Assembly: GCA_964354495.1 (NCBI GenBank)
Contig: CAYHAA010000009.1
Coordinates: 60,001 to 92,000 of the forward strand
Reading direction: 5' to 3'
DNA: 32,000 nucleotides
Origin: an uncultured archaeon
Lineage (GTDB): Archaea; Asgardarchaeota; Thorarchaeia; Thorarchaeales; Thorarchaeaceae
In this document: piece by piece, positions 607-23,357 of the stretch
How the letters are laid out: every line of letters begins with the position of its first letter
Position numbering within the stretch: the first letter of the stretch is position 1
Position numbers and translations under genes: made by a program
The notes under the pieces: model-generated
Seen by the model: only the letters and a program-made list of their open reading frames with translations
Databases searched by the model: none
Told to the model about the DNA's origin: nothing

Positions 607-1017
607 ATGACTCAGGCAAGAGTTCTGAAAATAGTGAAGGGTAGTACAATCACACTTCCTGCAGAATTTGTGGAGAGGATAGGACAATCATATGGCTTGA
701 CCATTCTGGTATTGAAAGATGGCAATGTAAAGATGTATCCTGTCGATAGCGACAAAGTAATGTATCTCAGGCTAGTCATCGATAAGTTGAGCAAGAGCTT
801 CCTCGAAGAACTTACCATGGTATTCATGGAAGTAGGACTTGAGGACATTCTATTCACAAGCGGAATCTGCCAAGCAGCTGACCAGTGCTTCTATGAATGC
901 TATTTCACACCCAAACAACTGAATGTGGAAATAGGTTTGCTTGATAAACGCCTAAGGACTATTACTGGCGTCAAGCAGGTCGAACTGGAAAAAGTTGCGA
1001 CAAGCCAAGGCTGCTGA
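607..1017 (+). CDS. AbrB/SpoVT-like N-terminal domain + ACT-like domain protein, putative regulator
   Basis: GGTGA SD at 601-605 directly before ATG 607. N-term RVLKIVKGSTITLPAEFVERIG fits the AbrB swapped-hairpin pattern (xxITLPxxxxxxxG); C-term beta-alpha-beta-beta-alpha-beta pattern fits ACT. Confidence 0.55.
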   Translation: MTQARVLKIVKGSTITLPAEFVERIGQSYGLTILVLKDGNVKMYPVDSDKVMYLRLVIDKLSKSFLEELTMVFMEVGLEDILFTSGICQAADQCFYECYFTPKQLNVEIGLLDKRLRTITGVKQVELEKVATSQGC

Positions 1018-1079
1018 GTTCGCTCACGCAGATCGGGATATCTCATGCCTCATGAATAACAAGAGGACTATTGGTCTAC

Positions 1080-2561
1080 ATGTCAGGTATTGTGGGCATC
1101 ATCCTGGTTGAACCGCTAGGTGATGCTGAATCCGTCATTTGTCGCATGTCAAATGCACTCCAACATCGAGGGGGTGAGTTGCTTCACCGGACTCTGCACG
1201 GAAAGAACTCATCCAGCAGCGCACTCATCTCAGTGAGAGCACAGGAGAAGAATGCAGCATTGATTGAATCAAGGCAGGATGGTCTGCAAATCGTCGATTC
1301 ATTTCCTCTCTTTCATGGGCAGGAGGACAGAGACCCTTTCCATAATCCAGAAGTCTTCAATACTCTCCTGTTACGTATTGATACAAGCGGACTTCGGATA
1401 TCCAGGTCACTCGATGGGACTCGTGGGCTCTACTATGTTCGTCTGGACCATGGTGTTGCTTTTGCTACTGAAAAGAAATGCATCTGGGCAATAGCTCAAG
1501 AAAGGAGCGAGATATTAGATCCGGGAGATGTATTGTCGTTCACGTGGGAAGGAGAACTCGCTATCACGCATTTGAGAGAACTTCAGATACCAGCAATCGA
1601 TAGAACCGTCGAGCGGTTCACAGCTCTTGAAAAACTGCAGAAGACACTCAACGCATCGTTCAGACATCTGAAGAGAGCAAAAAGGTGCTCAGTGCTCTTC
1701 TCAGGGGGAGTTGACAGCTCACTTGCAGCCTTACTGACAAAGAAGAATTGCAGAGATACAGTTCTTGTAACGGCAGCATGCAAAGGCTCTCACGACGAAG
1801 AAGCAGCGGTCAAATCAGCTGAATTGATGGGGACGAAGAGCATAGTAATTGAAGTCGATGCAAGTTCCATGTGGGAGGCACTCCCCGAGGTAATTCATTC
1901 AATAGAGACAAGCAATCGGATGCAAGTGGAAATCGCCTTGCCATTCTTCTTTGCAGCAAGAGAAGCAAAGAGGAGAGGATACAGCCTAATGGTTTCCGGC
2001 CAGGGACCCGACGAGCTCTTTGCTGGATATGGGCGGCATGAAACCTTAATGGAAAACGAGGGCGACAGCGCTGTCGAATGGACACTCTGGAATGAGGTTT
2101 CAATGACTCATGAAATAAACATACAGAGAAACGCTCGCGCAATCGCAGCAGCTGGACTTGATACCTTCTTTCCGTATTTGTATCCGCCCTTTGTCAGAAC
2201 TGCCATGTCATTGCCTGCTGCGTTTAAGGTGAATCCACAAGCTGTCCCTTCGCGCAAAATAATCTTCAGAGAACTAGCAGAGAACCTGGGTCTTCCACAT
2301 GATATTGCAGTGAAACCTAAACGAGCAACGCAATACAGCTCCGGGACGTCGAAACTTCTTTCAACATCGATTATTCAGAGGTTCGAAGAATCGGTGAAAC
2401 TCAACAAGAGGGAAACTTCGGCCGTCGTACAGAGCGTGCTTGACACAATCGCAACGCATCTTGGAATGCCGAATATCACGAGCAAGAACGATCTGAAAAT
2501 CGACCTAGAACCAACACGACGTCTGCAGCAACGATTGGGAATTTCAGGCTCCTGCGATTAG
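1080..2561 (+). CDS. asnB: Asparagine synthetase B-like protein (degenerate Ntn glutaminase domain + ATP-pyrophosphatase synthetase domain)
   Basis: MSGIVG N-terminus (canonical MCGIxG), HRG, SGGVDSS PP-loop, SGQGPDELFAGY, KRATQYSSG. Start set at ATG 1080 rather than TTG 1071. Confidence 0.8.
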   Translation: MSGIVGIILVEPLGDAESVICRMSNALQHRGGELLHRTLHGKNSSSSALISVRAQEKNAALIESRQDGLQIVDSFPLFHGQEDRDPFHNPEVFNTLLLRIDTSGLRISRSLDGTRGLYYVRLDHGVAFATEKKCIWAIAQERSEILDPGDVLSFTWEGELAITHLRELQIPAIDRTVERFTALEKLQKTLNASFRHLKRAKRCSVLFSGGVDSSLAALLTKKNCRDTVLVTAACKGSHDEEAAVKSAELMGTKSIVIEVDASSMWEALPEVIHSIETSNRMQVEIALPFFFAAREAKRRGYSLMVSGQGPDELFAGYGRHETLMENEGDSAVEWTLWNEVSMTHEINIQRNARAIAAAGLDTFFPYLYPPFVRTAMSLPAAFKVNPQAVPSRKIIFRELAENLGLPHDIAVKPKRATQYSSGTSKLLSTSIIQRFEESVKLNKRETSAVVQSVLDTIATHLGMPNITSKNDLKIDLEPTRRLQQRLGISGSCD

Positions 2562-3035
2562 CGGGATAACTGCATCATTGTCACTCTGCTGAAGCTCAAA
2601 TGTGAGCGTAACACATTTTCCATCTATGATGACAACGTGATTGGTGGAGAAACTATGTTCCAAAAGCGATTCAACTACTGTTTTCGATTCGGTGACCGTC
2701 ATCCGCCGAATGGTCATCTCATTGAGGATTTCCGGTATTGATCATACTGAGAGTTGTCAGACTCATTTCGTTACGAGCCTACTTCATACAGCATTCATCG
2801 ACACTTTTCGAACTCCGCATCTGCAACAATCGTTGTTCATTCGTTAGTGATATATAGTAGGGGCTCGAGGTATTGTATCGGCAATGTCCGAAAGTTAGAA
2901 GAACAATCGGTAAAGGCCGTTTCATTGGTGTGCGTAGTAACACAACGTTCATAAGAACGCTGCAGACCGAGCGGTGAATTAGCGACACAACGCAATTCGA
3001 CGTTCACCGATTTGTTATACATGGAGAGAATTGCA

Positions 3036-4079
3036 ATGGTTGGCATTGTAGGGTATGGAGTCTACGTTCCACGTTACCGCATAAAGACCTCAGATATCGC
3101 TGAGGTTTGGGGCGAGGATGGGTCAGTAATTGGTCAGAATCTAGGAGTGTTTGAGAAGTCGCTTCCCGGTCCTGATGAGGATGTGGCTACCATCTCAGTG
3201 GAGGCTGCGCGGAATGCAATCAAAATGGCAGGAATCAATCCGGTCGATATAGGGGCAGTCTACATAGGCTCTGAGTCTCACCCGTACGCAGTGAAGCCTA
3301 CAGGCACAATTGTTGCTGAGGCCATTGGTTGTTCGCATAATATGATGTGTGCGGATTTTGAGTTCGCCTGCAAGGCAGGAACTGCCGCAATGCAGACTGC
3401 CATGGGACTTGTCTCTTCTAAGATGATCAAGATAGGGCTTGCCATTGGAGCGGATACTGCGCAGGGAAGGCCGGGTGATGCACTCGAATATTCTGCTGCA
3501 GCGGGTGGCGCAGCCTATCTGATTGGTTCCAAAAAGCCTCTTGCCACAATAGAGGACACAGTTTCTTTCACAAGTGACACCCCTGACTTCTGGAGACGCG
3601 AAGGTGAGGACTATCCAAGCCATGGTGCAAGATTCACCGGTGAACCAGCCTATTTCCGGCACGTTGGCGAAGGTGCAGCGTTGTTGTTCAAGAAGACAAA
3701 GACAACTGTCGATGATTATGACTACTTCGTATTTCATATGCCCAACGGCAAGTTCCCGATATCTATGGGCAGGCAAGTCGGTGTCCCGAAGGAAAAACTC
3801 GAGGACAGCCTTGTTGTCCGACAGATTGGAAATACATACTCAGGTTCGGCAATGATCGGGCTGGCAAGAGTATTGGATATCGCGAAACCAGGTTCCAAGA
3901 TATTCGTGGTGGCATACGGCTCAGGAGCAGGAAGTGATGCCTTTTCCATCACGGTGGAAGATGCTATTGAGGAATGCCGCGGAGAAGTACCCACGGTTGA
4001 TGACTATATCAAACGAAAGACGTACGTGGACTACGCAACTTATGCAAAGTATAGACGAAAAATTAAGGCACTTGCGTGA
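3036..4079 (+). CDS. mvaS: Archaeal hydroxymethylglutaryl-CoA synthase
   Basis: [19 protein letters not shown] (catalytic Cys), [23 protein letters not shown]; first gene of HMGCS-thiolase-DUF35 cluster. Confidence 0.95.
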
Positions 4080-4091
4080 GGAGGTTTCACA

Positions 4092-5252
4092 ATGAACAAT
4101 AGAGTTGCGATAATAGGAGTCGGAATTAACAAGTTTGGCGAATTGTGGGATAAGAATCTCATGGATATTGCCTATGAAGCGGGAATGTACGCCATATGGG
4201 ATGCGGGAATTCCCGGTTCAGATATAGATGGCATGGTCATTGGAAATATGAGCGCAGGTCGGTTCACAGGACAAGAGCATCTTGGTGCTCTTGCAGTTGA
4301 CATGGCAGGACTTGGTGACATTCCAGCATATAGTGTCGAGGCAGCGTGCGCCAGCGGTGGCGCCGCGGTAAGACAAGCGTACATGGCGATCAGGTCAGGC
4401 GAACATGATCTCATGGTCGTACTAGGATGCGAGAAGATGAGTGATGTGAGCCAGAGTGAGGCCATGAACACCATCTCTGTTGCTAGTGACTGGGAATGGG
4501 AGGGTATGTTCGGAGGCACTTTCCCTGCACTCTATGCGTTCATGGCTCGAAGGCATATGCATGATTATGGCACGACTGAAGAGCATCTTGCATTGCCCGT
4601 TGTGAAGAATCATGCAAATGCAGCACATAATCCATTTGCACAGTTTCAGAGCCCTGTTCCACTAGACGTCGTGATGAACTCTGCCATGCTAGCAGAGCCG
4701 CTCAGGGTGCTCCATTCATCCCCAGTGACTGACGGAGCCGCGGGTCTTGTGGTGTGTAGAGAGGACCTTGCAAAGAAATACACTGACACGCCTGTAATTA
4801 TCGAGGCATCAGACCAGAGAAGTGATACATTATCCCTGCATGATAGAAAGTCAATCACTACTATGAGTTCAGCGGTCACTTCGACCAGATGCGCACTCAA
4901 GCAGGCGAATCTTGAACTCAAGGATATTGATGTTCTTGAACTCCATGATAGCTTCTCCATTGGAGAGATAATGCTTACTGAAGATGTCGGGATTGCAAAG
5001 AAGGGAGAGGGCGGCAAAGCTCTGGAAGAAGGTATTACAGAGATTGGTGGGAAGTTCCCTGTGAATACCTCAGGTGGGCTCAAAGCCCGAGGTCACCCAG
5101 TGGGGGCAACAGGTGTGGCACAGATTGTGGAACTAGTATTACAGCTTCGAGGTGATGCAGACAAGCGTCAAGTTGATGGAGCAGAGAAGGCGCTCGCTGT
5201 CAACATAGGCGGTACAGGAGCCACATCAATAGTTCATGTTCTTGGGAGATGA
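4092..5252 (+). CDS. Acetoacetyl-CoA thiolase (archaeal, SCP2-type thiolase)
   Basis: EAACASGG (catalytic Cys), ELHDSF, NTSGGLKARGHPVGATG; GGAGG SD upstream. Confidence 0.95.
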   Translation: MNNRVAIIGVGINKFGELWDKNLMDIAYEAGMYAIWDAGIPGSDIDGMVIGNMSAGRFTGQEHLGALAVDMAGLGDIPAYSVEAACASGGAAVRQAYMAIRSGEHDLMVVLGCEKMSDVSQSEAMNTISVASDWEWEGMFGGTFPALYAFMARRHMHDYGTTEEHLALPVVKNHANAAHNPFAQFQSPVPLDVVMNSAMLAEPLRVLHSSPVTDGAAGLVVCREDLAKKYTDTPVIIEASDQRSDTLSLHDRKSITTMSSAVTSTRCALKQANLELKDIDVLELHDSFSIGEIMLTEDVGIAKKGEGGKALEEGITEIGGKFPVNTSGGLKARGHPVGATGVAQIVELVLQLRGDADKRQVDGAEKALAVNIGGTGATSIVHVLGR

Positions 5253-5710
5253 TCAAAATGCCAGAGAGAGGTGTAGCGCAAGTTTGGCGACGCATCAAAT
5301 CAATCTATAGACTTCAGGGAAATAGGTGCGAAACATGTGGAACCCACTATTTTCCGCCGCGCCTCGTGTGCCCACAATGTCGAAGAAAAGGGAAAATCGA
5401 GCCCTTCACATTCAAAGGGCTGGGCACCATATACACATTTGCTGTGGTGCATCAAGCTCCTGAGGACTTCAAGCGGCAGATGCCCTATGTGATCGCACAA
5501 GTTGACCTCGATGAGGGTGCTCGACTCACAGCACAGATTGTGAACGTGGACAAAGAGGATGTGAAGATTGGCATGAGAGTCCGTGTCTGCTTCCGCAAGA
5601 TTAAGGAATTCGGCCAAGATGGAATCATTGTCTATGGATACAAATTCGAACCGACAATGAGAGTCACTGGACATGAAGAGAAGGCAGCTACCACAGATTT
5701 AGTTCCGTGA
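5249..5710 (+). CDS. DUF35 family Zn-ribbon + OB-fold protein (scaffold of the thiolase/HMGCS complex)
   Basis: CETCG...PPRLVCPQC Zn ribbon, GTIYTF, PYVIAQVDLDEG, IGMRV. ATGA overlap with the thiolase stop (alternative start ATG 5258). Confidence 0.92.
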   Translation: MIKMPERGVAQVWRRIKSIYRLQGNRCETCGTHYFPPRLVCPQCRRKGKIEPFTFKGLGTIYTFAVVHQAPEDFKRQMPYVIAQVDLDEGARLTAQIVNVDKEDVKIGMRVRVCFRKIKEFGQDGIIVYGYKFEPTMRVTGHEEKAATTDLVP

Positions 5711-11569: not shown

Positions 11570-13306
11570 CTACTCGCGATACGCTTTGCGTACTTCTTTG
11601 ACAACAAGGCCGGGCAGCTCTTTCACAGACCTGATAGGATAGACTGATGCACCAGCTCTCTCCAGGGCCTGATGAGTCTTGGAGGCTCGAGAGCTAGTTC
11701 CAGAGCCTATATGGAAAAGAAACAGCTTGTGGCCCCTCTTGGAAAGTGACTCAACAGCTCCCACCATCTGTTTCCAGTTCGACACCTCAGCATCGGTTAT
11801 GAGAAGAACAATGGATTCTTTCTCCGCGCTTCCGCACACTTCGCTTATCTTGCTTACAGGCGCAACAGTGCCTCCGCCTTGGTAGGCTAGTAGGACTCTT
11901 TCGACTGGAGCTCTCTCTCTTGTCCATTCGCATACTTGCACACCGTCAGAGAAGTTGATTGCAGCCACTCTGCAGCCTCGCCGAAATGCGAAGTCCATCG
12001 CAGCAAAAGCCGAAACAAGCGCAGTATGGTAGTCGCCAGAGATCGTGGTGGGACGCATTTCCCAAGTCATTGAAGCTGATGAGTCTATGACCATCAACAT
12101 GTCAAGAGTGGTCTTGGAGACTTTGGAGTCAGTTGTCACATAGAGTTGCCATTTTCTTGTTGAACGATTCGGAATGAGTACAGGGAATGCCTGAAGAGAC
12201 TGGACAATATCGAGCTCTTCCAAAGGGTCACCTAGCCTCCAGACCTCAGGCACCAATGGAACTGCCCCGGTCAATCTGGAGGAGTCTACTTCAAATCGAA
12301 TCGCTCCGTATGCTTTTGCACGGTACCAGAAACGAGTCCAGGCGGCCCTCTCCGATCCGACACCAGCTGTCAGGAAGACACCCTGCAAATCCTCAATGTT
12401 TCCGCCCAGCTGTTCGACATCAATAGCAAGCCGCTCCATCTCCTCCTCGAGGTTTGATGAATCGGCTCCCTCCAAGCACTTTCGTGCCAAGTCGCCGTTT
12501 CTGACCTCGACAGGACTTCCCATTATCCCGTCTACATCCAAGGGGACGGCAACGACTTTCCGCGAACCGTCCACTCCCTCTTGTTGAACTTCATTTGAAG
12601 CTCCTGAATAGGCACCAAGCAAGCTTTCGTCATCGGGCATCCACTTACATAGTATCTCTGCGACCTTTTCGCAAGAAGAAGGCCACCGATGCTCAAGTTC
12701 GACTGATGCGCGTGCAATGCGCACTATCTCAATCGCCGCCTCGAAAGTGCGCTGTTCTACATCGATCGTCGGAGGAATTGGAAACCCCCACATGACCCTA
12801 TAGCAAGAAACAATCAGTTTCCAGACGTCACTGTGCTCCTGAGTCCTCATCGCGGAATCATGAATGGAAGAAATGATGCGACTATGGGTGAGAGTCAGAA
12901 ATCTTCTCAACAGACTCGAGTCCACGACAAAGTCCGCAAAGAGATTACAGACAAACATAGCTGCGGCATCATTGACATGCTTCCGTGCAGCTGCAAACAT
13001 TCTCCCATTCATCACGCTGTCATACGGACACAGAAGATAGTGCTGAATCTCGTGGTGGCAGATGGACCTAAGAAAAGAATCGACCTCTTCGATACTCATG
13101 TGCAGAGGTACTCCAGCTAGATTAAGATGCACAGTCCAGCTGCTAGAGTCGATGTAGAAGAAACTGGAAACTCCAGGAATGTACTCAATCTCAGGCTCTG
13201 GAAGTGGAGGATGATAGAAGTCAGAAACAGCTAGAGCCCATGCTCTGGCCGCTGCAGAGCTGTACCCATTCTCGTCAGAAGACTTGCTAGCTGTCACATC
13301 CATCAT
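11570..13306 (-). CDS. HExxH putative metallopeptidase domain + C-terminal VWA (MIDAS) protein, MoxR partner
   Basis: CHHEIQHYLL (HEIQH at 13040-13054) followed by NLFADFVVD; MIDAS parts VIDSSAS, GGGT and ITDAE. Confidence 0.8.
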   Translation of the reverse strand: MMDVTASKSSDENGYSSAAARAWALAVSDFYHPPLPEPEIEYIPGVSSFFYIDSSSWTVHLNLAGVPLHMSIEEVDSFLRSICHHEIQHYLLCPYDSVMNGRMFAAARKHVNDAAAMFVCNLFADFVVDSSLLRRFLTLTHSRIISSIHDSAMRTQEHSDVWKLIVSCYRVMWGFPIPPTIDVEQRTFEAAIEIVRIARASVELEHRWPSSCEKVAEILCKWMPDDESLLGAYSGASNEVQQEGVDGSRKVVAVPLDVDGIMGSPVEVRNGDLARKCLEGADSSNLEEEMERLAIDVEQLGGNIEDLQGVFLTAGVGSERAAWTRFWYRAKAYGAIRFEVDSSRLTGAVPLVPEVWRLGDPLEELDIVQSLQAFPVLIPNRSTRKWQLYVTTDSKVSKTTLDMLMVIDSSASMTWEMRPTTISGDYHTALVSAFAAMDFAFRRGCRVAAINFSDGVQVCEWTRERAPVERVLLAYQGGGTVAPVSKISEVCGSAEKESIVLLITDAEVSNWKQMVGAVESLSKRGHKLFLFHIGSGTSSRASKTHQALERAGASVYPIRSVKELPGLVVKEVRKAYRE

Positions 13307-13315
13307 TATAGCATC

Positions 13316-15025
13316 CTAAGATTCGATATGTTTCTGAAGTTCATCCTTGAGTCTGACTGCCTCAGTCCCGCCAGATATCTCCAAGAAGACTGCAGACTCA
13401 GGAGAGTCGCCTGTGACGTAGATCACAAGGGTCAGACCATCTATTCTGAGAGCTTTTCTCTTTGGAGGAGTCAGCGTTTCCTTTAGCATTGGAGTGAGTT
13501 TTGGATACTTCAGTCCGATGGTTGTCCAGAGCTCTTGCCACTGCTCGAACGTCAACTCAAACTGGGTGAGTGTCAATCTGTGGAGCGCATCGGAAACTTG
13601 CTTCAAGAGCACGCTTCTATTTGGAAAGTCGGTATTGTACATGAGTTCATCATGTGTCTTCGTAAGCTGTTCAATATCTCGATCCTTAATCCCACGTTCT
13701 ATTCTCTGCACTGTGATCACATATCGGGGTTTCTTGAGCTCTTTGGCGAACTCTGAGTAATCGAGTTGTACAAGCAGATCGCTCTTGGCCATCTCCTTGA
13801 GTTGTTCGAATGACTCCTTTGACTCACTCCCATGCTTCAATCGCGCTATGATCTCAATGGCAGGAGCTCTCTGAGCATAACGAGAAGTCGCCAGCTCAAC
13901 AAGATGTTGAGTGAAGGCATAGAGGTCACCATAATAGGGAGACCGCTCGGACTCATCTCTCACAAACTTTGTTCTATGCCAGAAGACAAGCGGAGCCAAG
14001 GACTTGACAATCTCTATGCTCACTTCATGAGACCCAACAAGCCAAGCAGTGGCTTTTGAATAACGATTCAGGTCCTTTGCTGCCCGAACGCTGAGAGGCA
14101 CAATCACCTTGTTACAGACACTCTTTGCAGTATTGAAATGGCATCCATCACAGAGGCCAGTGGCGACAGTTATGCCCGATGACTGGCTCTTGTCTACTCT
14201 AATACATGCTCCGAACTCACGCACCAGAGACCGCATGTATTCGGAAGCCTCTGGTGACACAGGTATCTTGTCCGCGAGATTCCAAATTGTAAGGAGGTTC
14301 TCTTCTGTCAAGATCGCAGGTACTTGCCAGAGTTCATCAAAACCGAATAGGCGTTCATCACGAGAAGAAAGTATCAGTTCCAAGTCACTCACGGTTGGCA
14401 TGGTAATTGGAACTGCCAAGCCAAATCTGTCTAGAAATGGAGGCCCAATATCGAAGGTTCCAGCATCAGCAGGATTGAGCGTGGCATAGAGGCTGTACTC
14501 ATCGCATCTCTTGACCTCATCATAATACTTGACCTCGCCTTCAGCGAGAAGAGAGAGCAGTATGTTCTGAGAGTGAGGCGTTAAACGATTGACTTCATCG
14601 ATGATCTTCCAGAAACCTGTGATGAACGAGCGCCATACAACGACCTCTAATCCCTCTTTCATGAGAGGGCCAGGACGTAGTGTGGCCACCATCTTTTCTT
14701 CAGTGAGTTGAGGGTGACCTCTGAGAATACCATCCTCAATCTCCTCAAGGCTCTTTCCGGTCATCATCCGACCTAGGATCTTGACCAATGTCGTCTTTCC
14801 ACCACCGTGGCCACCAATGAGCAGCATTGCAGAACGGGGCACTAGCGCATTGAGGACACATGAACCTACTATCAAGGGGATTCGTGTGGTCTGTGTCTTG
14901 TCCTTCGCTCCAGTGGTGGTGTACTTAATCTCCAAATCCGTAGAGTGCACAAAGAGACCTCTGCTCTCTACTGTAGTAATAACGCTTCTAACCAGTTCTT
15001 GAAGTTTCGATGATGGAGAGCTCAT
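13316..15025 (-). CDS. MoxR-family AAA+ ATPase with long C-terminal extension
   Basis: Walker A GGHGGGKTT, Walker B IIDEVNR, QNILLSLLAEG, ATLNP, PFLDRF; 9 bp upstream of the VWA gene. Confidence 0.85.
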   Translation of the reverse strand: MSSPSSKLQELVRSVITTVESRGLFVHSTDLEIKYTTTGAKDKTQTTRIPLIVGSCVLNALVPRSAMLLIGGHGGGKTTLVKILGRMMTGKSLEEIEDGILRGHPQLTEEKMVATLRPGPLMKEGLEVVVWRSFITGFWKIIDEVNRLTPHSQNILLSLLAEGEVKYYDEVKRCDEYSLYATLNPADAGTFDIGPPFLDRFGLAVPITMPTVSDLELILSSRDERLFGFDELWQVPAILTEENLLTIWNLADKIPVSPEASEYMRSLVREFGACIRVDKSQSSGITVATGLCDGCHFNTAKSVCNKVIVPLSVRAAKDLNRYSKATAWLVGSHEVSIEIVKSLAPLVFWHRTKFVRDESERSPYYGDLYAFTQHLVELATSRYAQRAPAIEIIARLKHGSESKESFEQLKEMAKSDLLVQLDYSEFAKELKKPRYVITVQRIERGIKDRDIEQLTKTHDELMYNTDFPNRSVLLKQVSDALHRLTLTQFELTFEQWQELWTTIGLKYPKLTPMLKETLTPPKRKALRIDGLTLVIYVTGDSPESAVFLEISGGTEAVRLKDELQKHIES

Positions 15026-15254: not shown

Positions 15255-16325
15255 TTGGGCGAAGAAAGAACGTATGCAGAAGCAATCACTCTGATAGAAC
15301 CAGAGAAACAACCTACAGAACGGTTGAGTCAATACTCAGTGGTAACCAGAGCGATGGAATATCACACGCTGATGAATCGCTATGGTGATCTGAAGAGGGA
15401 CCTGGTTGATGCAGGATTGCGATTTGGCGGCCGAGTTCTTCTGATCGGATCCCCGGGAACAGATTTCGAAGCTTTTGCGCATTACCTGAGTCGGGAAGTG
15501 CCACTCAAACTAGTGCGATTCAGGATGGACATTTTACTGAATGAGGTCAAAAGTGGAGCTGAGATACTGAGAGTCGGATTCGAGTTCGCAAGGAGGAATT
15601 CTCCGACTGCCATGTATGTGGAGAAATTGGAGTCTGTTTCGCCGGCCAGCAGCGAACGCTCAGCAGTCCTTCAGGATGAGCTGAGCCGAACAGGATGGGA
15701 TGGGGAAGAAGTCTTGGTCATCGCATCCACGACAAGGCCGCAGGATGTTGACACTGATGTCCTTTCTACATTCGATAGGGTCTTTGTCATAGAGGGAACA
15801 ACACTTGAAGATCGAGTACGAGTGTTTGAGCAGACATTGAAAGGCCACGAGAATATCGACCCAACCGTGGTAGCGGAGTTGACTGATGGCTGGGGGTACT
15901 CCAGCACGAAACAACTTGCTGTGAGCCTTTTCATGACCGAGACCGAAGAAGGTGGTCAGATTCCCAGAAACAAGATCGAGGAGATGATAGAGAAGAGTGG
16001 CGTCATGCCGCTCAACAACCCCAGATACCTTGAATCAGTCATACGGCGCACTGGAGGAGCAACGAAACACAAGATAGAGAGTCTGCGTACTGAGTATCCT
16101 GATGACTTCCTAGATCAGCTCTACCTCATGGCGGCGGGAGAAGACTATTCAGCAACTCAGAGAGCCATAGAGGTCTTGAATGATGGAATGCCGTTGTCCA
16201 AGGAGGACCGCGAGGTACTCTCCAGATACCCGTTCCTTCTGAATGGAACGCCAGAAGACAGACTGACAAGGCTACTGAGAGCAAAGAAGAGCAATGACAG
16301 ACTTCAGAGGATCATGGGACGTTAA
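15255..16325 (+). CDS. Degenerate classic-clade AAA+ domain protein (predicted pseudo-ATPase)
   Basis: VLLIGSPGTDFE (Walker A position), AMYVEKLE (Walker B position), VIASTTRPQDVD...FDR (SRH position), AELTDGW (lid). TTG start with GGGGT upstream; start uncertain. Confidence 0.7.
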   Translation: MGEERTYAEAITLIEPEKQPTERLSQYSVVTRAMEYHTLMNRYGDLKRDLVDAGLRFGGRVLLIGSPGTDFEAFAHYLSREVPLKLVRFRMDILLNEVKSGAEILRVGFEFARRNSPTAMYVEKLESVSPASSERSAVLQDELSRTGWDGEEVLVIASTTRPQDVDTDVLSTFDRVFVIEGTTLEDRVRVFEQTLKGHENIDPTVVAELTDGWGYSSTKQLAVSLFMTETEEGGQIPRNKIEEMIEKSGVMPLNNPRYLESVIRRTGGATKHKIESLRTEYPDDFLDQLYLMAAGEDYSATQRAIEVLNDGMPLSKEDREVLSRYPFLLNGTPEDRLTRLLRAKKSNDRLQRIMGR

Positions 16326-16340
16326 TCAGGGGACCGGGAT

Positions 16341-19300
16341 TTGGGTAATATCAGAGCCTACATTGAATCGGCAAAGTTGGACAACTTCCTCTCATTCTAC
16401 TCAGGAAGAGTCGTCTTCGACAGAGGACTGACTGTCCTAGCTGGGCCAAATGGATCAGGCAAGACATCCGTCTTCCATGCTCTGAAGTTCGCATTGGGCT
16501 CAAATCAACGAGAGAATAGATACAGTAAATGGAGCGATTTCATCAGACATGGTGCAAGTACTGCACAAGTCGAAGTCATTGTCAAGATTGATGGTCAAGA
16601 CAGGAAGTTCCAACGGAAGATTGACCGTGATGGTATCCCTAGAGCATACGTAAATGGTCGAAGAGTCAAGGCCGCTGAGCTTAGGCAGATAGTTCAGTCA
16701 TTCGGACTGGATACGGACAATCCTCTAGTCTTCATCCCTCAGGAGAGAATCAACGCAGTACGAGATATGGATCCGTACGAAGTGAGAAAGCTAGTTGAAG
16801 AGGGAACTGGTCTTGATGTCCTTCGAGACAGGATAATCCTTCAAGAGACTGAGGTCGTTCAGAGTCGACAACGACTGACAGCAGCTCTTGCAGAATCGAA
16901 GTCAGTAGAGAGAGAGCTTGAACTGCTTCAACATGACCTCACCCGTCTTGAAAAGAAGAGGGCCCTCCAAGAACAGGAGAAGGCTCTCGAAAAAGACCTG
17001 TTGTGGGCATCTCTCGATGACTTGACTGAGAAGATCGATTCTATCAAGACGGAGATTGACGGGAAGGAGGAAGGTCTCGTATCGATACTTGACGAACAGA
17101 CACTTGTTCAATCAGAGGTCGCTAGCAATGAACAAGAGACTGAAAGCGTTGAAGCAAAGCTCTCGAATCTGCAGATTGAAACCGGCCGCATCGATGCCAA
17201 GATCGAAGAAGAGGAACGTAATCTGGCGCGTATCGAGGGAGATTCTCAGAGACAGGTAAGTGAACTCAAGCAACTTGAGAAGGAAATCAAAACAGAAACG
17301 AGAAACAAGGAAAAACTCCAAGAAGATATCGAACGCATTACATCCACCAAAGAAGACACCATGGAGAAGCAGCGTCAACTCCGTACGTCACTTCAAACCA
17401 TAGAGGATGAACGAAATCACCTCAGAGATGAATTGGAGGCCTTTGCTGACTGGAACACCAAGAGAGCAGAATCCCATGGAAGATACAAAGCCCTTCAAGC
17501 GGAGATTGAAGGGAAAGACCTACTCCTGCGAAGCGTGAGAGAGAGACTGCAAGTAGAGGAAGCAGAGCTTCAGTCGATAGAGAGCAAGTGGTCACATACA
17601 TGGTCTGCAATGGAAAAATCCGATGAGAAGGAGCTGGCAAAGAAGAAAGGCCAGCTAGAGAGAGAGATTGCTTCTCTGAATGAAGAACGATTCCGGCAGA
17701 GCAGTATAGTATCCCAACTCCAGAAGGATATTGATGAGCTCAATGTGCGACTCTCCGAAACATCCAAACGTATTCCTGATACAGTCAAGAAACTGAAGGA
17801 TGCAATTGCAGAGCACAAATTGGCGACCGTCACAGGCCCGCTTATCGAGCTCTTCACCGCGGATGACTCCATAGCCTGTGCAGTTGAGGCTGTGCTGCCT
17901 GATAATATGACACTAGCCTTCATAGTCACTGATGAATCAGACTTTCAGATACTTCAGAAGCTCAGAGACAATGCTGAGGCGCCATCCCCACTGATTCTGC
18001 TGAAGCCTTCAGGAGATCCGGGTGAACGCCCAGCACTGAAGACCGAAGCTGGTGTAGAAGGATGGCTCTGGGATAGGCTCAACATCGACGATGAAACCAA
18101 GAAGCTTCTGCGAAGAGCTATCGGAGACTTCGTGCTCACAAAGAATGTTCGATCTGCAACGCGTCTTGCAACAAAGGAGGGACTCAGGGGGGTCTCCGTG
18201 GACGGGCATGTCATTATTCCAGAGGCTGACAAGATTGTAAGCAATCCAAAGATTCTGCCATCAGGAATGGTCTCTACTGCTCCCCTCCAGTCGCGTCTCT
18301 CCAGTGCAGACAAAGAATTGTTTCTAGCCAAAAAGCGAGTCACCGACACCATGATGGCCTTGGATGAACTCACAAATCAAAGAGAGGAAGTACTGGATCT
18401 GCTGAGTCAGATGACCCGATGGAGTGGAACCTGGGAGCGACGAAGAAGCCTGCTTGAAACTATCCCTGTACAGGAAGAGAGAATTGCCGCGCTCGATGAA
18501 GAACTGAAGGGGCTTCAAGCAGAGCTGGGTAAATCAGAGAGGGAACTCAGAAAACTCGACAACACCCAGCCTCCTGAACGAAGTAGACTGATTGGGCAAG
18601 ACTCAGCTCTTCGTATTAAGCACCGACAACTCCAGGCAGACCTCACAAGAGTGGACGCTCGAGCGAACGCAGCTGAACGGGATGAAGAGATCAAGCGTCA
18701 GGAGCTGAAGAGGATTGTTGAGAATGTCACCATGCTGACAAACAGCCTCGACGAGTTGCGTGCGGAGATCCTAGAATCAAAGGGTGTTGCCTCAAAAATC
18801 CTTCAGAAGATAGAAGTTCTGAGGGCAAGCCAAGAAGAGGCCAGGAACCAGAATGGCGGGCTTGCTGAGGAAATGGGACGACTCAAGGAGACCAATCGCT
18901 CTCTAAGGGCCAGAATTGTGGAACTCAACCTTGTCATCAAGGAACAAAAGATACAGGTCCTTCAGGCCAAGCGACAATTAACGAACATGGAGTATGATCT
19001 CGAGAACCTCGAGCGGGACCTTGATGGACAAGAGAGACCAGATGTAGTGAAACCCCTAGAACAGGTAAGGAATGAACTTGTGAAGCTTCGCCACGTCCTG
19101 GATGATTATCAAGATGTATCCGAGAGTGTGGCGCACACTGAAACTCAACTGAAGGGACGGCTGACTACCCTCGTTGAGAGAGTGACAGAGCTGCAAGAGG
19201 AATTGGAAGAAGCGGAGTCTACTGTCAAGGATATACGAGAGCAGTATCATAATGGAATGAATGAGACCTTGCGCAATGTTGAGAAGAATGTGAATGAAGT

Positions 19301-19718
19301 TCTAGGAAGTGTTCAATTCCCTGGAAGTGTTCGTTTCGAACTTGCGCTCAGAGAGGGAGATTATGGTGTGGAGTTCAAATCAAGAATCAAAGCAGAAGGC
19401 TTTGGTGATGTCAGTGCGGGGTCTGGCGGCGAGCGATCTCTCATCGCCATCTCGTTGATTCTAGCCCTTCAAAGGTATAATCCTGCGCCAGTCTATGTAT
19501 TGGATGAGGTTGACACATTCCTCGATGCTACGAACACTGAACTTGTGAGCAGACTTTTCCATGATGCGTCCCGCAGAAGTCAATTCATCCTTCTAACGCC
19601 CGCCAAAAGCACTCACCTTCTGAAGCACGCTGACAAGATACTGGGCATCGTTTCACCCAATGGCGTAGAACCATCTGTAATAATCGAGAGCCCGAAGTTC
19701 AAGGGACAACAGGAGTGA
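16341..19718 (+). CDS. smc: SMC-family ATPase, SMC5/6-like
   Basis: GPNGSGKT, Q-loop region DNPLVFIPQE, two long coiled coils around a hinge (GPLIELF...AVEAVLP...AFIV), SGGERS, VLDEVD, QFILLTP; 1125 aa. Confidence 0.93.
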   Translation: MGNIRAYIESAKLDNFLSFYSGRVVFDRGLTVLAGPNGSGKTSVFHALKFALGSNQRENRYSKWSDFIRHGASTAQVEVIVKIDGQDRKFQRKIDRDGIPRAYVNGRRVKAAELRQIVQSFGLDTDNPLVFIPQERINAVRDMDPYEVRKLVEEGTGLDVLRDRIILQETEVVQSRQRLTAALAESKSVERELELLQHDLTRLEKKRALQEQEKALEKDLLWASLDDLTEKIDSIKTEIDGKEEGLVSILDEQTLVQSEVASNEQETESVEAKLSNLQIETGRIDAKIEEEERNLARIEGDSQRQVSELKQLEKEIKTETRNKEKLQEDIERITSTKEDTMEKQRQLRTSLQTIEDERNHLRDELEAFADWNTKRAESHGRYKALQAEIEGKDLLLRSVRERLQVEEAELQSIESKWSHTWSAMEKSDEKELAKKKGQLEREIASLNEERFRQSSIVSQLQKDIDELNVRLSETSKRIPDTVKKLKDAIAEHKLATVTGPLIELFTADDSIACAVEAVLPDNMTLAFIVTDESDFQILQKLRDNAEAPSPLILLKPSGDPGERPALKTEAGVEGWLWDRLNIDDETKKLLRRAIGDFVLTKNVRSATRLATKEGLRGVSVDGHVIIPEADKIVSNPKILPSGMVSTAPLQSRLSSADKELFLAKKRVTDTMMALDELTNQREEVLDLLSQMTRWSGTWERRRSLLETIPVQEERIAALDEELKGLQAELGKSERELRKLDNTQPPERSRLIGQDSALRIKHRQLQADLTRVDARANAAERDEEIKRQELKRIVENVTMLTNSLDELRAEILESKGVASKILQKIEVLRASQEEARNQNGGLAEEMGRLKETNRSLRARIVELNLVIKEQKIQVLQAKRQLTNMEYDLENLERDLDGQERPDVVKPLEQVRNELVKLRHVLDDYQDVSESVAHTETQLKGRLTTLVERVTELQEELEEAESTVKDIREQYHNGMNETLRNVEKNVNEVLGSVQFPGSVRFELALREGDYGVEFKSRIKAEGFGDVSAGSGGERSLIAISLILALQRYNPAPVYVLDEVDTFLDATNTELVSRLFHDASRRSQFILLTPAKSTHLLKHADKILGIVSPNGVEPSVIIESPKFKGQQE

Positions 19719-20374
19719 GAGTGACGAAAGAGAAGAGCCTTGCAGCAAGAGTCTACGAGATAGTACAGGCGGCTCGTTCTGGAGAGATTGATCCACTTGA
19801 ACTGCGATTGACAGACTCATACAGAGAACTGAAGGAACTGGCAGCAAGGATTGACTGTAGGCTTGACATCGATGAGATGTTGAATGAGGTTCTCGGGGCG
19901 AAGGTAAACCGTGTTCAGGAACTGGCGAGAGTTCTTGCTTCTCCAGAGATCTACGTTGCTCGTTTGAAGGAGAAATCAATGAGGGAAATTGCCAGACTCT
20001 TGGTGCAGAGGCAGCCAGTTGTTATAGGTCATCTTGAGCGATCCTCACTCAACGAGTCTCTTGACAGAATTGTTCAGTTCATAGATGCAATGACTCGTGA
20101 GGCACCTCAAGACCTGGTGCCAAAGATGAGCGGACTTCCGAATGGTTTCACTCTTGAAACTGAAGATACTGTCTTCATGGAAGACCTTGAGAAGTTCCTT
20201 ACAAGAATTCCTCAAGATGGAAAGGCCATCTTTGACGATATCATCGAGAGTGCTGAGCTTGATATCTTTCTCAAGCATTTCCTCTATGTCATAATCCTTG
20301 TATCCCAAGGACGTTTATTGTATAATCCTGCCACACGACAATTACAGAGGCCACTTTTTCCCGAGGCAACATAG
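19715..20374 (+). CDS. scpA: Kleisin (ScpA/Nse4-like)
   Basis: N-term EIVQAARSGEIDPLELRLTDSY resembles ScpA (LxxLxRxGEIDPWDIDI); C-term FDDII...FLYVIILVSQGRL fits the kleisin C-terminal wHTH; GTGA overlap with the smc stop. Confidence 0.75.
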   Translation: MRVTKEKSLAARVYEIVQAARSGEIDPLELRLTDSYRELKELAARIDCRLDIDEMLNEVLGAKVNRVQELARVLASPEIYVARLKEKSMREIARLLVQRQPVVIGHLERSSLNESLDRIVQFIDAMTREAPQDLVPKMSGLPNGFTLETEDTVFMEDLEKFLTRIPQDGKAIFDDIIESAELDIFLKHFLYVIILVSQGRLLYNPATRQLQRPLFPEAT

Positions 20375-20454
20375 AAACAATGGCAATCAATAGCTGCAGG
20401 GAACAGGTGCTCATTCTTAGGGAGGACCAATGCAGAGGCGGTGTGTTTCGACAT

Positions 20455-21804
20455 TCACGCAGACACCTCAAGAAGAAGCTCGCTGGGTGCTTCAAGGGAA
20501 TGGTTGTTTCCATCTGCAAGTCGGGAGTGCAACTTCAGTTTGGCAATAGCTGCAAAGCCCAGAAGTGAAACGACCACTAAGACAACAGACGCGCCAATGA
20601 AGGGAGGACCTGTCGAACCAGCAGTTTCAGCCCATACTCCGCCAATTGCCATTCCCATTACTTGTACAGCCGTAAATACGACATTAAAAAGAGAAAAGAC
20701 ACGACCGCGGAACCTATCTTCTACGAGCGTCTGCATCAATACACTGAGAGGTATGTTCAGAATCACATCAACTGCACCGATCATCGCCCAAGCAAGCAGT
20801 ACGCTCAAGAAATCAAACGCTATGACCAGTGCGAAGACACCAATGCCAGCTAGAAGACCAGCAAACGCAATGAGATACAATGGTCTCTCGATTTTGCTCT
20901 TGCGGCTTAGATAGACAGCCGCTGTAGCCCCTGTGGCAGCGCCAGCACTGAGTATCAATCCTATCTGAGCAGGTCCAAGCCCCAATGCGCCTTCGAAATA
21001 TGGCATCAGGAGTGCATTGAGTATTCCAGAGGAACCTGCGAGTAGCACTGCAAACACAAACAGGAATGAGAGAACTGCATTTCCTATGACATAGCGGCCG
21101 CCCTGAACTATCTGGTCCCGTAGTGATTCGTGCTCTACATACTTTCTCCGTGGGCTGAGATCAGTCGATATTCCGCGGAGAGCAATGGCTGATAGAATGA
21201 AGGTCATCGACGTGATGGCAAAGGCAAGGAAATAGTCGGGAGCAAGGAGCGCAATCAGGATACCTCCGAGAGGAGGAACGACTAGCTGAACAACCTGGAA
21301 AGTCATCTGAGATAGAGAGGATGCTGCGACTAGTTCGTCGCCTTCCACCAGATTGGGAATAGATGCGCTCCTTGCTGGAAAGAACCATGCATTTGCAGTT
21401 GCATGGATAAGCGTCAAGAGATACACCCAATAGATGGGGGGAATGAACGATGGAAAATGGATTGTTACAGGTATCAGTATAATTGCAGCAGCTCGAATAA
21501 TATCTGATGCAATCATGATTCTCTTGCGATTCCAACGATCAACATATACACCAATGAAGCCAGCAAACACGACAACAGGCAACACTTCAACCATGGCGAG
21601 TACTGCCATTGCCATGGTAGAACCTGTTAGGTCATAGGCATAGAACAGAAGGGCAAGGGCAGATATTGCAGTGCCAATATTCGATACAAGTTGTCCTAGC
21701 CAGAGGCGTGAGTAATCAGGATGGCGTAGAGCGGCCCCAAAGCCACTCGGCCGTAGTTCATCTGCAGCACCCTCAGGTTGCTGGTCAATCAACGATTCTA
21801 CCAT
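20455..21804 (-). CDS. MFS transporter (drug:H+ antiporter / macrolide-efflux-like)
   Basis: LWLGQLVSNIG, motif A GVYVDRWNRKRIMIASD, QTLVEDRFRGRVFS, about 12 hydrophobic segments; GAGGTG SD. Confidence 0.92.
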   Translation of the reverse strand: MVESLIDQQPEGAADELRPSGFGAALRHPDYSRLWLGQLVSNIGTAISALALLFYAYDLTGSTMAMAVLAMVEVLPVVVFAGFIGVYVDRWNRKRIMIASDIIRAAAIILIPVTIHFPSFIPPIYWVYLLTLIHATANAWFFPARSASIPNLVEGDELVAASSLSQMTFQVVQLVVPPLGGILIALLAPDYFLAFAITSMTFILSAIALRGISTDLSPRRKYVEHESLRDQIVQGGRYVIGNAVLSFLFVFAVLLAGSSGILNALLMPYFEGALGLGPAQIGLILSAGAATGATAAVYLSRKSKIERPLYLIAFAGLLAGIGVFALVIAFDFLSVLLAWAMIGAVDVILNIPLSVLMQTLVEDRFRGRVFSLFNVVFTAVQVMGMAIGGVWAETAGSTGPPFIGASVVLVVVSLLGFAAIAKLKLHSRLADGNNHSLEAPSELLLEVSA

Positions 21805-22390
21805 CCAAGGTGCACCTCTGTCATTTCCTCCGTCGAAAGCAGAGGTTCTCGTAAGGCTCGTCTCTGAAGGGCTGGATCGATTCTCTGGCGTGTCATTCTA
21901 GCACCCCATCCGCGATATGATCGTCAAAGCCAATGCATCAGCAATCTGTACATTGATCGACCGATTTCTCTTGGTCAGAAGAATCAATTGAGAATTATCT
22001 CGAAGAGTCATGATCATTCACATTCTCCTATGAACTGGTCAGTGGTAATGGTCGTTCTGAGCTGCAATGACCACATCTGTGACCACTACGTGACCACAAG
22101 TCAATGGGCTGGTGATCTGAGGTCATCATCATGACCATTCGCTCAGAAGATGCCATTGGCAACTACCTCAGACTTGAGAGGAATGCATAGGCAATAGCAT
22201 CAGTGCTCTGAACTTGGCGAAGAGCCTTGTTCTTTGGGAAGGTTGAGTTGTTGATTGTTGGAGCCATAATAATTCACAGGAAATACTGCTCAATATTGGT
22301 ATATATAGCGAAGCCACTTATGAGGGACACAGGATGAAGTCACAAGATGTGACGACCTCTAGAGCAAGTCACCGGTCCGGCAGGTCATAC

Positions 22391-22396
22391 TTTATA
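22391..22396 (+). promoter_or_regulatory. TATA box for the Kite gene
   Basis: TTTATA ending 27 nt before ATG 22423, consistent with a leaderless or short-leader transcript. Confidence 0.45.
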
Positions 22397-22422
22397 CCTG
22401 ATTGTACTGAGGAATTCGAAAC

Positions 22423-22926
22423 ATGAACGAGTATGCAGTGCTTGTTAAGCTCCTCACACGAACAGGAACACCCATTGGTGCAAGCATAGATGACATGCTC
22501 GATGCACTCGGTCTCCCTGAGGATGCCGGGAGGCATGTTCTATTCCAAAAGCTGAGTAACCTTCATGAGAGGGTCAGACCACTGGGTCTTGTTATCAAGC
22601 ACAATCCAGTATCAGGAGTCTTCTATCTTGACACCTTCAGCGAGGTTACGCTTCCTCAAGATGGTACCACACTGCCAGATAGGCTTGCGGCAACTCTTCT
22701 TATTGTAATGACACTGGCCTACCAAGATGGTGGCTGGGTGAATGTCGAGAGAGTCAGAGAGTTCAGGAAGAAGGCGCTGCAGGGTGTGATGGTCGATCTT
22801 CGAGAACTGCAGAGTCAGGGCTATGTTGATTTGGATCAGGACAAGAAGCGAGTACGCCTTGGAACAAAAGTGCCATTCGAGATCGACTACGAGGCATTCT
22901 TCAAAAACCTAGCAGAGAGTCAATAA
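22423..22926 (+). CDS. Kite-family tandem winged-helix protein (ScpB/Nse1/Nse3/MksB-like)
   Basis: 167 aa with two wHTH-like halves. LHERVRPLGLVIKHNPVSGVFYL fits the WH-A wing; LAATLLIVMTLAYQDG...LRELQSQGYV fits ScpB WH-B (ETLAIIAY...L...GLI). Lies 2 kb from smc-kleisin on the same strand. Confidence 0.65.
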   Translation: MNEYAVLVKLLTRTGTPIGASIDDMLDALGLPEDAGRHVLFQKLSNLHERVRPLGLVIKHNPVSGVFYLDTFSEVTLPQDGTTLPDRLAATLLIVMTLAYQDGGWVNVERVREFRKKALQGVMVDLRELQSQGYVDLDQDKKRVRLGTKVPFEIDYEAFFKNLAESQ

Positions 22927-22934
22927 CTGTTTCA

Positions 22935-22960
22935 GAAGGACGGTTCCTTCGCTAGTTTTA
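22935..22960 (+). terminator. Small hairpin + T-run after the Kite gene
   Basis: GAAGGA-CGGT-TCCTTC (22935-22950) followed by GCTAGTTTTA; the TTTTAT could alternatively be the TATA box of the next gene. Confidence 0.35.
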
Positions 22961-22997
22961 TCAGCAGTCAGATACGACTCATGACTGGTCAACAATC

Positions 22998-23357
22998 ATG
23001 TCCCACAGACGTTCTCTTCGATTTTCACAGTCTACCTGCCCAGTCTGTGGAGGCAAGGAAGTGGCCCGCGATGACCTCAAGGGAGACCTTCTTTGCACTA
23101 ACTGCGGACATATCGTGACCCGTACCGAATCGAGAAGTGTTGGTAAGTTCGATATCGCTCAACACCTCAAGCGAAACGGGAAGATGACCTTCCCGAGCTT
23201 GATTGAAGTCACTGGAGCCTCTGATGACAAGCTCTTTGGTGTGCTCCAAGGCATGGAGAGCATGGAACTCGTTGAACAGATAACAGGACAATACACTCTC
23301 ACAAAGAAAGGACAGAGATGGTACCGTCAAAGACTGGGACAGGAGTGGGGATACTAA
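22998..23357 (+). CDS. TFIIB-type Zn ribbon + winged-helix protein
   Basis: CPVCGG...KGDLLCTNCGHIV matches the TFIIB Zn-ribbon pattern; the C-half ends in LVEQITGQYTLTKKG, a typical wHTH wing. Confidence 0.75.
   Translation: MSHRRSLRFSQSTCPVCGGKEVARDDLKGDLLCTNCGHIVTRTESRSVGKFDIAQHLKRNGKMTFPSLIEVTGASDDKLFGVLQGMESMELVEQITGQYTLTKKGQRWYRQRLGQEWGY

Follow-up and report, generated by a model that had tools for sequence, protein, structure and literature searches.

We analyzed a 32,000-nucleotide window from an uncultured archaeon of the family Thorarchaeaceae (assembly GCA_964354495.1, contig CAYHAA010000009.1, positions 60,001 to 92,000), focusing on an operon-like locus in its center that encodes a structural maintenance of chromosomes (SMC) ATPase, a candidate kleisin, a kite protein, a Zn-ribbon protein, and a catalytically dead AAA+ protein that we call X. 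On the evidence described below, the locus is likely to encode, in its Thorarchaeial form, the second SMC complex of Asgard archaea, which has been published as SMC5/6-related, with X as its dedicated non-catalytic partner. An earlier note on this DNA had described five plus-strand genes, a 15-nt gap, and a GTGA overlap, and all of these are present. Read from the sequence, X stops at TAA (16323-16325) and is followed after 15 nt by the TTG start codon of smc at 16341, while the GTG start codon of the kleisin gene (19715-19717) overlaps the TGA stop codon of smc (19716-19718). In database copies, the kleisin begins two codons further on (GTG at 19721, 217 aa), and the coupling to smc is still tight. 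Because all five plus-strand genes have orthologues in the same order elsewhere, this arrangement is beyond chance.

To follow the locus across Asgard archaea, we compared 52 loci in total: 40 around homologues of X in a sample of 251 Asgard genomes, 3 chosen by SMC homology, and 9 chosen by kite homology. The loci were scanned with hidden Markov models (HMMs) built from seeds of several families. We refer to families by the codes f1 to f28, among which f1 and f2 are Thorarchaeota, f7 is Jordarchaeales, and f24 is Lokiarchaeota including Ca. Harpocratesius repetitus. The genes for X, SMC, kleisin, and kite form an unbroken, co-directional row, often overlapping by 4 nt, in 39 of the loci selected by X; of the other loci with enough contig, the same holds for 3 of 3 selected by SMC and 4 of 4 selected by kite. 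The contiguous operon spans f1 (14 genera), f2, f7, f8, f9, f16, f19, f24, and f28. Wherever the contig allowed, X was directly upstream of smc in all Asgard loci examined, covering nine coded families, and this includes the 7 loci (7 of 7 with enough contig) that were chosen other than through X. The kite was detected in 10 of the 28 coded families, a patchy distribution among Asgard archaea, and X orthologues were recognized in none but kite-bearing families. In 48 of 59 Thorarchaeia and in 52 of 54 members of f9, the locus is present as one copy and in synteny. The linkage of the pseudo-AAA+ and kite genes to smc, on which the earlier note had staked its interpretation, held in every other Asgard genome examined.

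X matches PF00004 with an E-value of 1.4e-7 (32.5 bits against a cut-off of 21.2), and its top Protein Data Bank (PDB) matches are CDC48, PAN, and p97. It consists of an AAA core, a lid, and a conserved helical C-terminal domain of about 90 aa; the core and the AAA_lid_3-type lid, which was detected in the f7 and f8 orthologues, place it in the classic clade of AAA+ proteins. Atlas returned generic AAA clusters only, and public annotations of X read "ATP-binding protein," "AAA family ATPase," and even "FtsH 4." Aligned with the f19 orthologues, X has GSPGTDFE instead of GRPGTGKT at Walker A, VEK instead of IDN at Walker B, Thr instead of Asn at sensor-1, and Thr instead of Arg at the arginine finger. 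Because every catalytic motif is replaced (the Walker A Lys, Walker B Glu, sensor-1 Asn, and Arg finger), X is a pseudo-ATPase, and the earlier note was right to place a dead AAA+ gene at the head of the operon.

The decay of X is stepwise across families. Walker A is intact in f19 and degenerate (PGTD) in Thorarchaeia and f9; in f7 and f8, a deletion has removed the P-loop region from X, which keeps its AAA_lid_3 lid and C-terminal domain. Given that the lid and the helical C-terminal domain of about 90 aa persist through this decay, these are the conserved parts of X, while its N-terminal half is very variable between families. Using the closest orthologue (G012) as the reference, the ratio of nonsynonymous to synonymous substitution rates (dN/dS) is 0.088 for X overall, 0.12 for the core, 0.05 for the lid, and 0.05 for the C-terminal domain; with G017 or G024 as the reference, substitutions at synonymous sites have reached saturation. 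These ratios place X under purifying selection. A profile of the C-terminal domain returned only marginal MTERF matches in the PDB (E 0.04), which we judged to be noise, and the domain has no recognizable relative.

In f19, X is about 460 aa long and keeps GRPGTGKT, the sensor-1 Asn, and an RFD arginine, with D-N at Walker B; in the corresponding loci (L072 6095-9963, L073 7015-10886, and L071 9094-12977) the SMC protein is only about 832 aa, with short arms. Family f19 may represent the least decayed state of the system. The X homologues of f28 (L089 4912-6594) and f16 (L092 4890-6143) have a different C-terminal region, which contains an inserted segment of helix-turn-helix-like appearance.

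The 1125-aa protein downstream of X has the split ABC-type head, long antiparallel coiled coil, and central hinge of an SMC protein (Pfam SMC_N at residues 7-1105, E 1.5e-39; SMC_hinge at 497-610, E 2.6e-10). Its Walker A (GPNGSGKT), signature (SGGERS), and Walker B (VLDEVD) motifs are intact and are kept in 24 orthologues. Against the archaeal SMC equivalog TIGR02169, it scores 307 bits, below the cut-off of 729. The earlier note had proposed looking for a separate canonical Smc-ScpAB, and the same genome (G000) has one on contig C3 (locus L045), with Smc at 750-4361 (1203 aa), ScpA at 4358-5068 (236 aa), and ScpB at 5079-5633 (184 aa), their starts overlapping or adjacent to the preceding gene. 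The canonical ScpA matches PF02616 at 32 bits and the canonical ScpB matches PF04079 at 115 bits. This ScpA was missed by a whole-genome Pfam search for ScpA; its translated protein passes the model. Because a complete canonical Smc-ScpA-ScpB operon is present elsewhere in the genome, the locus is a second SMC system, with its own kleisin and kite in one operon. As a single sequence, the locus SMC matches SMC5/6 at 52 to 54 bits, and the canonical paralogue has no SMC5/6 protein among its best 60 matches, which puts any such match under about 49 bits. By these scores, the locus SMC is far nearer to SMC5/6 than the canonical paralogue is.

The 167-aa protein has no sequence-family match in Pfam, and its assignment as a kite comes from structure. 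An AlphaFold2 (AF2) model built from a 24-sequence alignment has two winged-helix domains, with a pLDDT (predicted local distance difference test) score of 75.8. The best 24 PDB matches of this model in Foldseek are all kites (E 6e-5 to 1e-3), with JetB at the top and MAGE-A3/A4/G1, Nse1, Nse3, ScpB, and MukE among the others; TM-scores are low (0.3 to 0.4) because the orientation of the domains differs. The kite gene is 3' of the kleisin gene in every family sampled.

The 219-aa protein encoded between smc and kite, a position that is invariant across families, is very probably a kleisin, although the support is weak. When 22 diverse members were combined in a profile, its top three PDB matches were the C-terminal winged-helix domains of ScpA co-crystallized with Smc heads (4i99_C, E 0.018; 5xns_C, E 0.13; 5xg3_C, E 0.16). 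Together with the AF2 secondary structure, which ends H-H-H-E-E, these matches weakly indicate a C-terminal winged helix. Among named clusters in Atlas, Nse4_C and ScpA come nearest, which we treat as a lead only. The single sequence has no match in Pfam, NCBIfam, or the PDB, and a HMMER search of 1.84 billion representatives with a profile of Thorarchaeial kleisins gave 26 matches, none in named families. The trio of SMC, kleisin, and kite proposed in the earlier note is therefore upheld for the SMC and the kite and more weakly for the kleisin, which has no Pfam match but does have ScpA profile matches. In f28 (L089) and f16 (L092), the gene between smc and kite encodes 232 to 245 aa and is unmatched by the kleisin HMM.

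SMC5/6-related archaeal SMCs were defined by Yoshinaga & Inagaki 2021 (PMC8665677), and TACK as well as Asgard archaea possess two complete SMC-kleisin-kite operons, one of which is SMC5/6-related, as in Promethearchaeum genes 495-497 (van Hooff, Raas, Tromer & Eme, bioRxiv 10.1101/2024.01.07.573240). In the latter paper, the table row for Thorarchaeaceae lists SMC5/6-related SMCs and an Nse1/3-related kite, with no Nse4-related kleisin and no SMC-kite adjacency; a row without a kleisin fits the divergent kleisin at our locus. Because such operons are already published for Asgard and TACK archaea, the core of the locus is known. The interpretation in the earlier note is supported overall, but an SMC5/6-related SMC-kleisin-kite operon in archaea is not new. 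The published complex resembles the locus in having a second SMC beside the canonical one, an operonic kleisin, and an Nse1/3-type kite in Asgard archaea; it differs in having three genes, whereas the locus adds AAA+, Zn-ribbon, and MoxR/VWA neighbors. Neither PMC8665677 nor bioRxiv 10.1101/2024.01.07.573240 mentions an AAA+, MoxR/VWA, or Zn-ribbon gene as a partner, and a full-text literature search found no AAA+, MoxR, or VWA partner of such an SMC operon. As far as could be found, no description exists of the dead AAA+ gene with its universal linkage, of the Zn-ribbon gene specific to Thorarchaeia, or of the recurring link to MoxR/HExxH-VWA.

Eukaryotic SMC5/6 (Smc5-Smc6, Nse4, Nse1/Nse3, Nse2, and Nse5/6) has the same SMC-kleisin-kite architecture as the locus. 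Nse1, Nse3, and MAGE proteins are among the top fold matches of the kite, and the Atlas leads tie the kleisin to Nse4_C. The eukaryotic complex differs in its subunits: the locus has one SMC gene and one kite gene, so homodimers of both proteins are expected, and we found neither a RING nor a SUMO ligase nor an Nse5/6 homologue. Purely by analogy, X could have an Nse5/6-like regulatory role, though it is an AAA+ derivative and not an alpha-solenoid. To our knowledge, the accessory factors Nse5/6 and Nse2 have no known prokaryotic origin, and we know of no SMC complex with a mechanism less understood than that of SMC5/6.

In the window, the operon is preceded on the opposite strand by genes for a MoxR-type ATPase and a VWA protein. 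The VWA protein has an invariant HExxHYxxCPxD motif and, in the alignment, a complete metal ion-dependent adhesion site (MIDAS) of the form DxSxS...T...D. An AAA_5 ATPase adjoining a complete-MIDAS protein is the composition of MoxR-VWA remodeling pairs such as CbbQ-CbbO, RavA-ViaA, and BchI-BchD, and our pair has weak matches to BchI, BchD, and cobaltochelatase. It differs from these pairs in that its VWA protein has an invariant HExxH N-domain and in its linkage to an SMC operon and a dead classic-clade AAA+ protein, a combination found in no paper in our literature search. The MoxR ATPase adjoins the operon in f1, f2, f7, f8, and f20, in three arrangements. The pair is divergent from the operon in all sampled Thorarchaeial genera; it is upstream, co-directional, and overlapping in Jordarchaeales and f8, resulting in a six-gene operon; and it is downstream of the kite in f20. 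The f20 locus (L090 573-3986, G114) has kleisin, kite, MoxR, and VWA genes in one direction, and its contig ends before smc and X.

Considering all families together, f1, f2, f7, f8, f9, f20, and f24 have the kite as well as VWA, and 16 families have neither. The kite occurs without VWA in three families, and VWA occurs without the kite in two (weak or rare). We consider this co-distribution suggestive, given that related genomes are non-independent and adjacent genes can be lost in one deletion. In f9 and f24, the VWA orthologue is elsewhere in the genome, unlinked to the operon. Because the pair is unlinked or not found in several families, it cannot be an obligate part of the system.

Within genus g18 of f1, four genomes that are 87 to 96% complete (G071, G106, G198, and G216) are without X, kite, and VWA together, and G230 has all three. 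A single event that removed the whole region could account for this joint absence.

Based on what is known of SMC families, we propose that the locus SMC, with its intact ATPase motifs, would form a homodimer that is closed into a ring by the 219-aa kleisin, whose N-terminal helices would contact one SMC neck and whose C-terminal winged helix would contact the other head. Gene order and family suggest that a dimer of the 167-aa kite would be seated on the kleisin, and the ring would be expected to act on chromosomal DNA by ATP-driven entrapment or loop extrusion. New here is the proposal that X may be a dedicated non-catalytic partner of this ring, a regulator, loader, or adaptor and thus a candidate fourth subunit, most likely acting via the parts of X that are conserved, the lid and the C-terminal domain. 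In many lineages, the MoxR-type ATPase and the HExxH-VWA protein would be functionally tied to the complex and could remodel or process it. In Thorarchaeia, the Zn-ribbon protein would be an addition, probably a DNA-binding or targeting factor, and the gene for a major facilitator superfamily (MFS) transporter that separates kleisin from kite would be an unrelated insertion.

A more far-reaching version of this proposal sees X as a fossil AAA+ protein that was turned into a structural loader or regulator and that the ancestral Asgard SMC5/6-type complex had as an obligate fourth subunit, and it sees MoxR and HExxH-VWA as an ATP-driven machine that opens, unloads, or proteolytically processes the ring, for example via the kleisin. 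We regard this version as speculative and rather unlikely. If it were true, ring control by MoxR/HExxH-VWA would give prokaryotes a counterpart of the loader/unloader or separase-type control found in eukaryotes.

Several of our results weigh against a dedicated partner of an SMC5/6-type ring. The raw profile score of the SMC family is nearer to SMC2 (247 bits), SMC3 (241), and SMC4 (234) than to SMC6 (166) and SMC5 (165). Since our own scores do not place the SMC nearer to SMC5/6 than to SMC1-4, we filed it under the published SMC5/6-related class on literature grounds; the label "SMC5/6-like" in the earlier note takes its support from the published papers and the relative scores and was not confirmed by our own similarity tests, in which SMC1-4 outscore SMC5/6. 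The best E-value behind the kleisin assignment is 0.018, the 22 diverse members of that family have no Pfam match, and an hhalign comparison of their profile with the genome's own ScpA gave an E-value of 0.079 in the same C-terminal region only. The AF2 monomer of the kleisin has a pLDDT of 44, too poor for a fold search. A complex prediction of X (residues 45-356) with the SMC head halves and the kleisin scored 0.00 and is taken neither for nor against an interaction. Related genomes are not independent samples, and most loci were picked through X itself. Finally, MoxR/VWA is not adjacent to the operon in f9, f16, f19, f24, and f28, and no VWA orthologue was found in f16, f19, or f28. These last observations would also fit a reading in which the SMC-kleisin-kite core is real and X and MoxR/VWA are only conserved neighbors that have a separate job and do not touch the complex, as would the great variation in the N-terminal half of X. 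We nevertheless think it unlikely that X is only a neighbor: in nine families it immediately precedes smc, and the stop and start codons often overlap there, even as the genes around them vary; the MoxR/VWA linkage survives three different rearrangements; and X orthologues track the families that bear the kite. If X were only a neighbor, the locus would be an ordinary member of the published class.

The architecture of SMC, kleisin, and kite is also shared with Wadjet (JetABCD) and MukBEF, and JetB and MukE are fold matches of our kite, so the locus might instead be a device against plasmids or viruses, either Wadjet-like or resembling the restriction of extrachromosomal DNA by eukaryotic SMC5/6, rather than a chromosome organizer. 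Viral DNA is a target of restriction by eukaryotic SMC5/6, a role in conflict has been proposed for some MoxR-VWA systems, and the association with such a pair and the patchy occurrence of the kite would be in keeping with defense. We consider this improbable. With its classical hinge, the locus SMC belongs to the Smc type and is not MukB- or JetC-like; PADLOC returned no JetA, JetB, or JetD match, none for the kleisin or kite, and JetC only at 1e-7 over the coiled coil, which is generic ABC/SMC ATPase similarity. There is no JetD/Toprim or other nuclease in or beside the operon in any of the 52 loci, extending what the earlier note had observed for this locus, and the single-copy, syntenic state of the locus in Thorarchaeia and f9 and the even base composition throughout the window also argue against a defense system. 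The least probable alternative is that the locus is a mere divergent copy of the canonical, condensin-like Smc-ScpAB. The two resemble each other in having a homodimeric SMC, a kleisin with a C-terminal winged-helix domain, a tandem winged-helix kite, and the gene order smc-kleisin-kite; furthermore, the best single-sequence PDB matches of the locus SMC are prokaryotic Smc heads, and the only sequence matches of the kleisin are ScpA C-domains. However, the genome has its true, complete Smc-ScpA-ScpB operon elsewhere, the two SMCs are only 23% identical, the Pfam models for ScpA and ScpB match the canonical copies but not the kleisin and kite of the locus, and the SMC5/6 scores of the locus SMC (52 to 54 bits alone, 165 as a profile) exceed those of the canonical SMC.

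We therefore favor the second Asgard SMC complex with X as its partner. Eukaryotic SMC5/6 is presumed to descend from Asgard SMC5/6-related complexes, and the linkage of X prompts one to ask how SMC rings were controlled before there were eukaryotes. An extra gene with such universal linkage also makes reconstitution concrete and cheap, with four small-genome proteins as the target, and the recurrent linkage of MoxR and a VWA-zincin suggests an unexplored layer of ATP-dependent control.

Genes of the locus and their neighbors, with positions in the window
Feature	Position	Strand	Description
HExxH (zincin-like) + VWA/MIDAS protein	11570..13306	-	578 aa; invariant motifs, weak VWA_2 match
MoxR-type (AAA_5) ATPase	13316..15025	-	569 aa; AAA_5 E 6e-12 + AAA_lid_2
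X, dead AAA+	15255..16325	+	356 aa, TTG start; PF00004
SMC ATPase, second non-canonical paralogue	16341..19718	+	1125 aa, TTG start; SMC_N + SMC_hinge
Kleisin candidate	19715..20374	+	219 aa, GTG start; predicted N-terminal helices + C-terminal winged helix
MFS transporter gene, not part of the system	20455..21804	-	449 aa; MFS_1 E 6e-30
Kite, tandem winged helix	22423..22926	+	167 aa; AF2 model + Foldseek matches
C4 Zn-ribbon + winged helix-turn-helix (wHTH) protein	22998..23357	+	119 aa; Zn_Ribbon_TF E 2.7e-6

The last gene of the locus encodes a protein with a TFIIB-type Zn ribbon just below the Pfam cut-off (27.3 against 29 bits) and weak wHTH matches. In the alignment, Cys14/17/33/36 and a C-terminal tail of the form WY..LG..WGY are invariant. 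The gene is beside the kite only in f1 and f2, that is, in Thorarchaeia; the earlier note had counted it as part of the locus, which holds within Thorarchaeia and only there. Every Thorarchaeial orthologue keeps the tail, WYRQRLGQEWGY, in which W, Y, L, G, W, G, and Y are invariant, and it looks like a docking peptide.

The MFS gene between kleisin and kite was found only in this genus and in G213, which belongs to another genus of the family. In sister genera, X, SMC, kleisin, kite, and Zn-ribbon genes are contiguous. Because the other sampled Thorarchaeial genera have kleisin and kite adjacent or within about 0.6 kb, with no MFS gene between them (the order is inverted in L050), the MFS gene is an insertion. 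In a related genome, a fragment encoding 51 residues of the kite N-terminus (G001:C8:66452-66604) is located about 650 nt upstream of the intact kite and may have been left behind when a rearrangement brought in the MFS gene.

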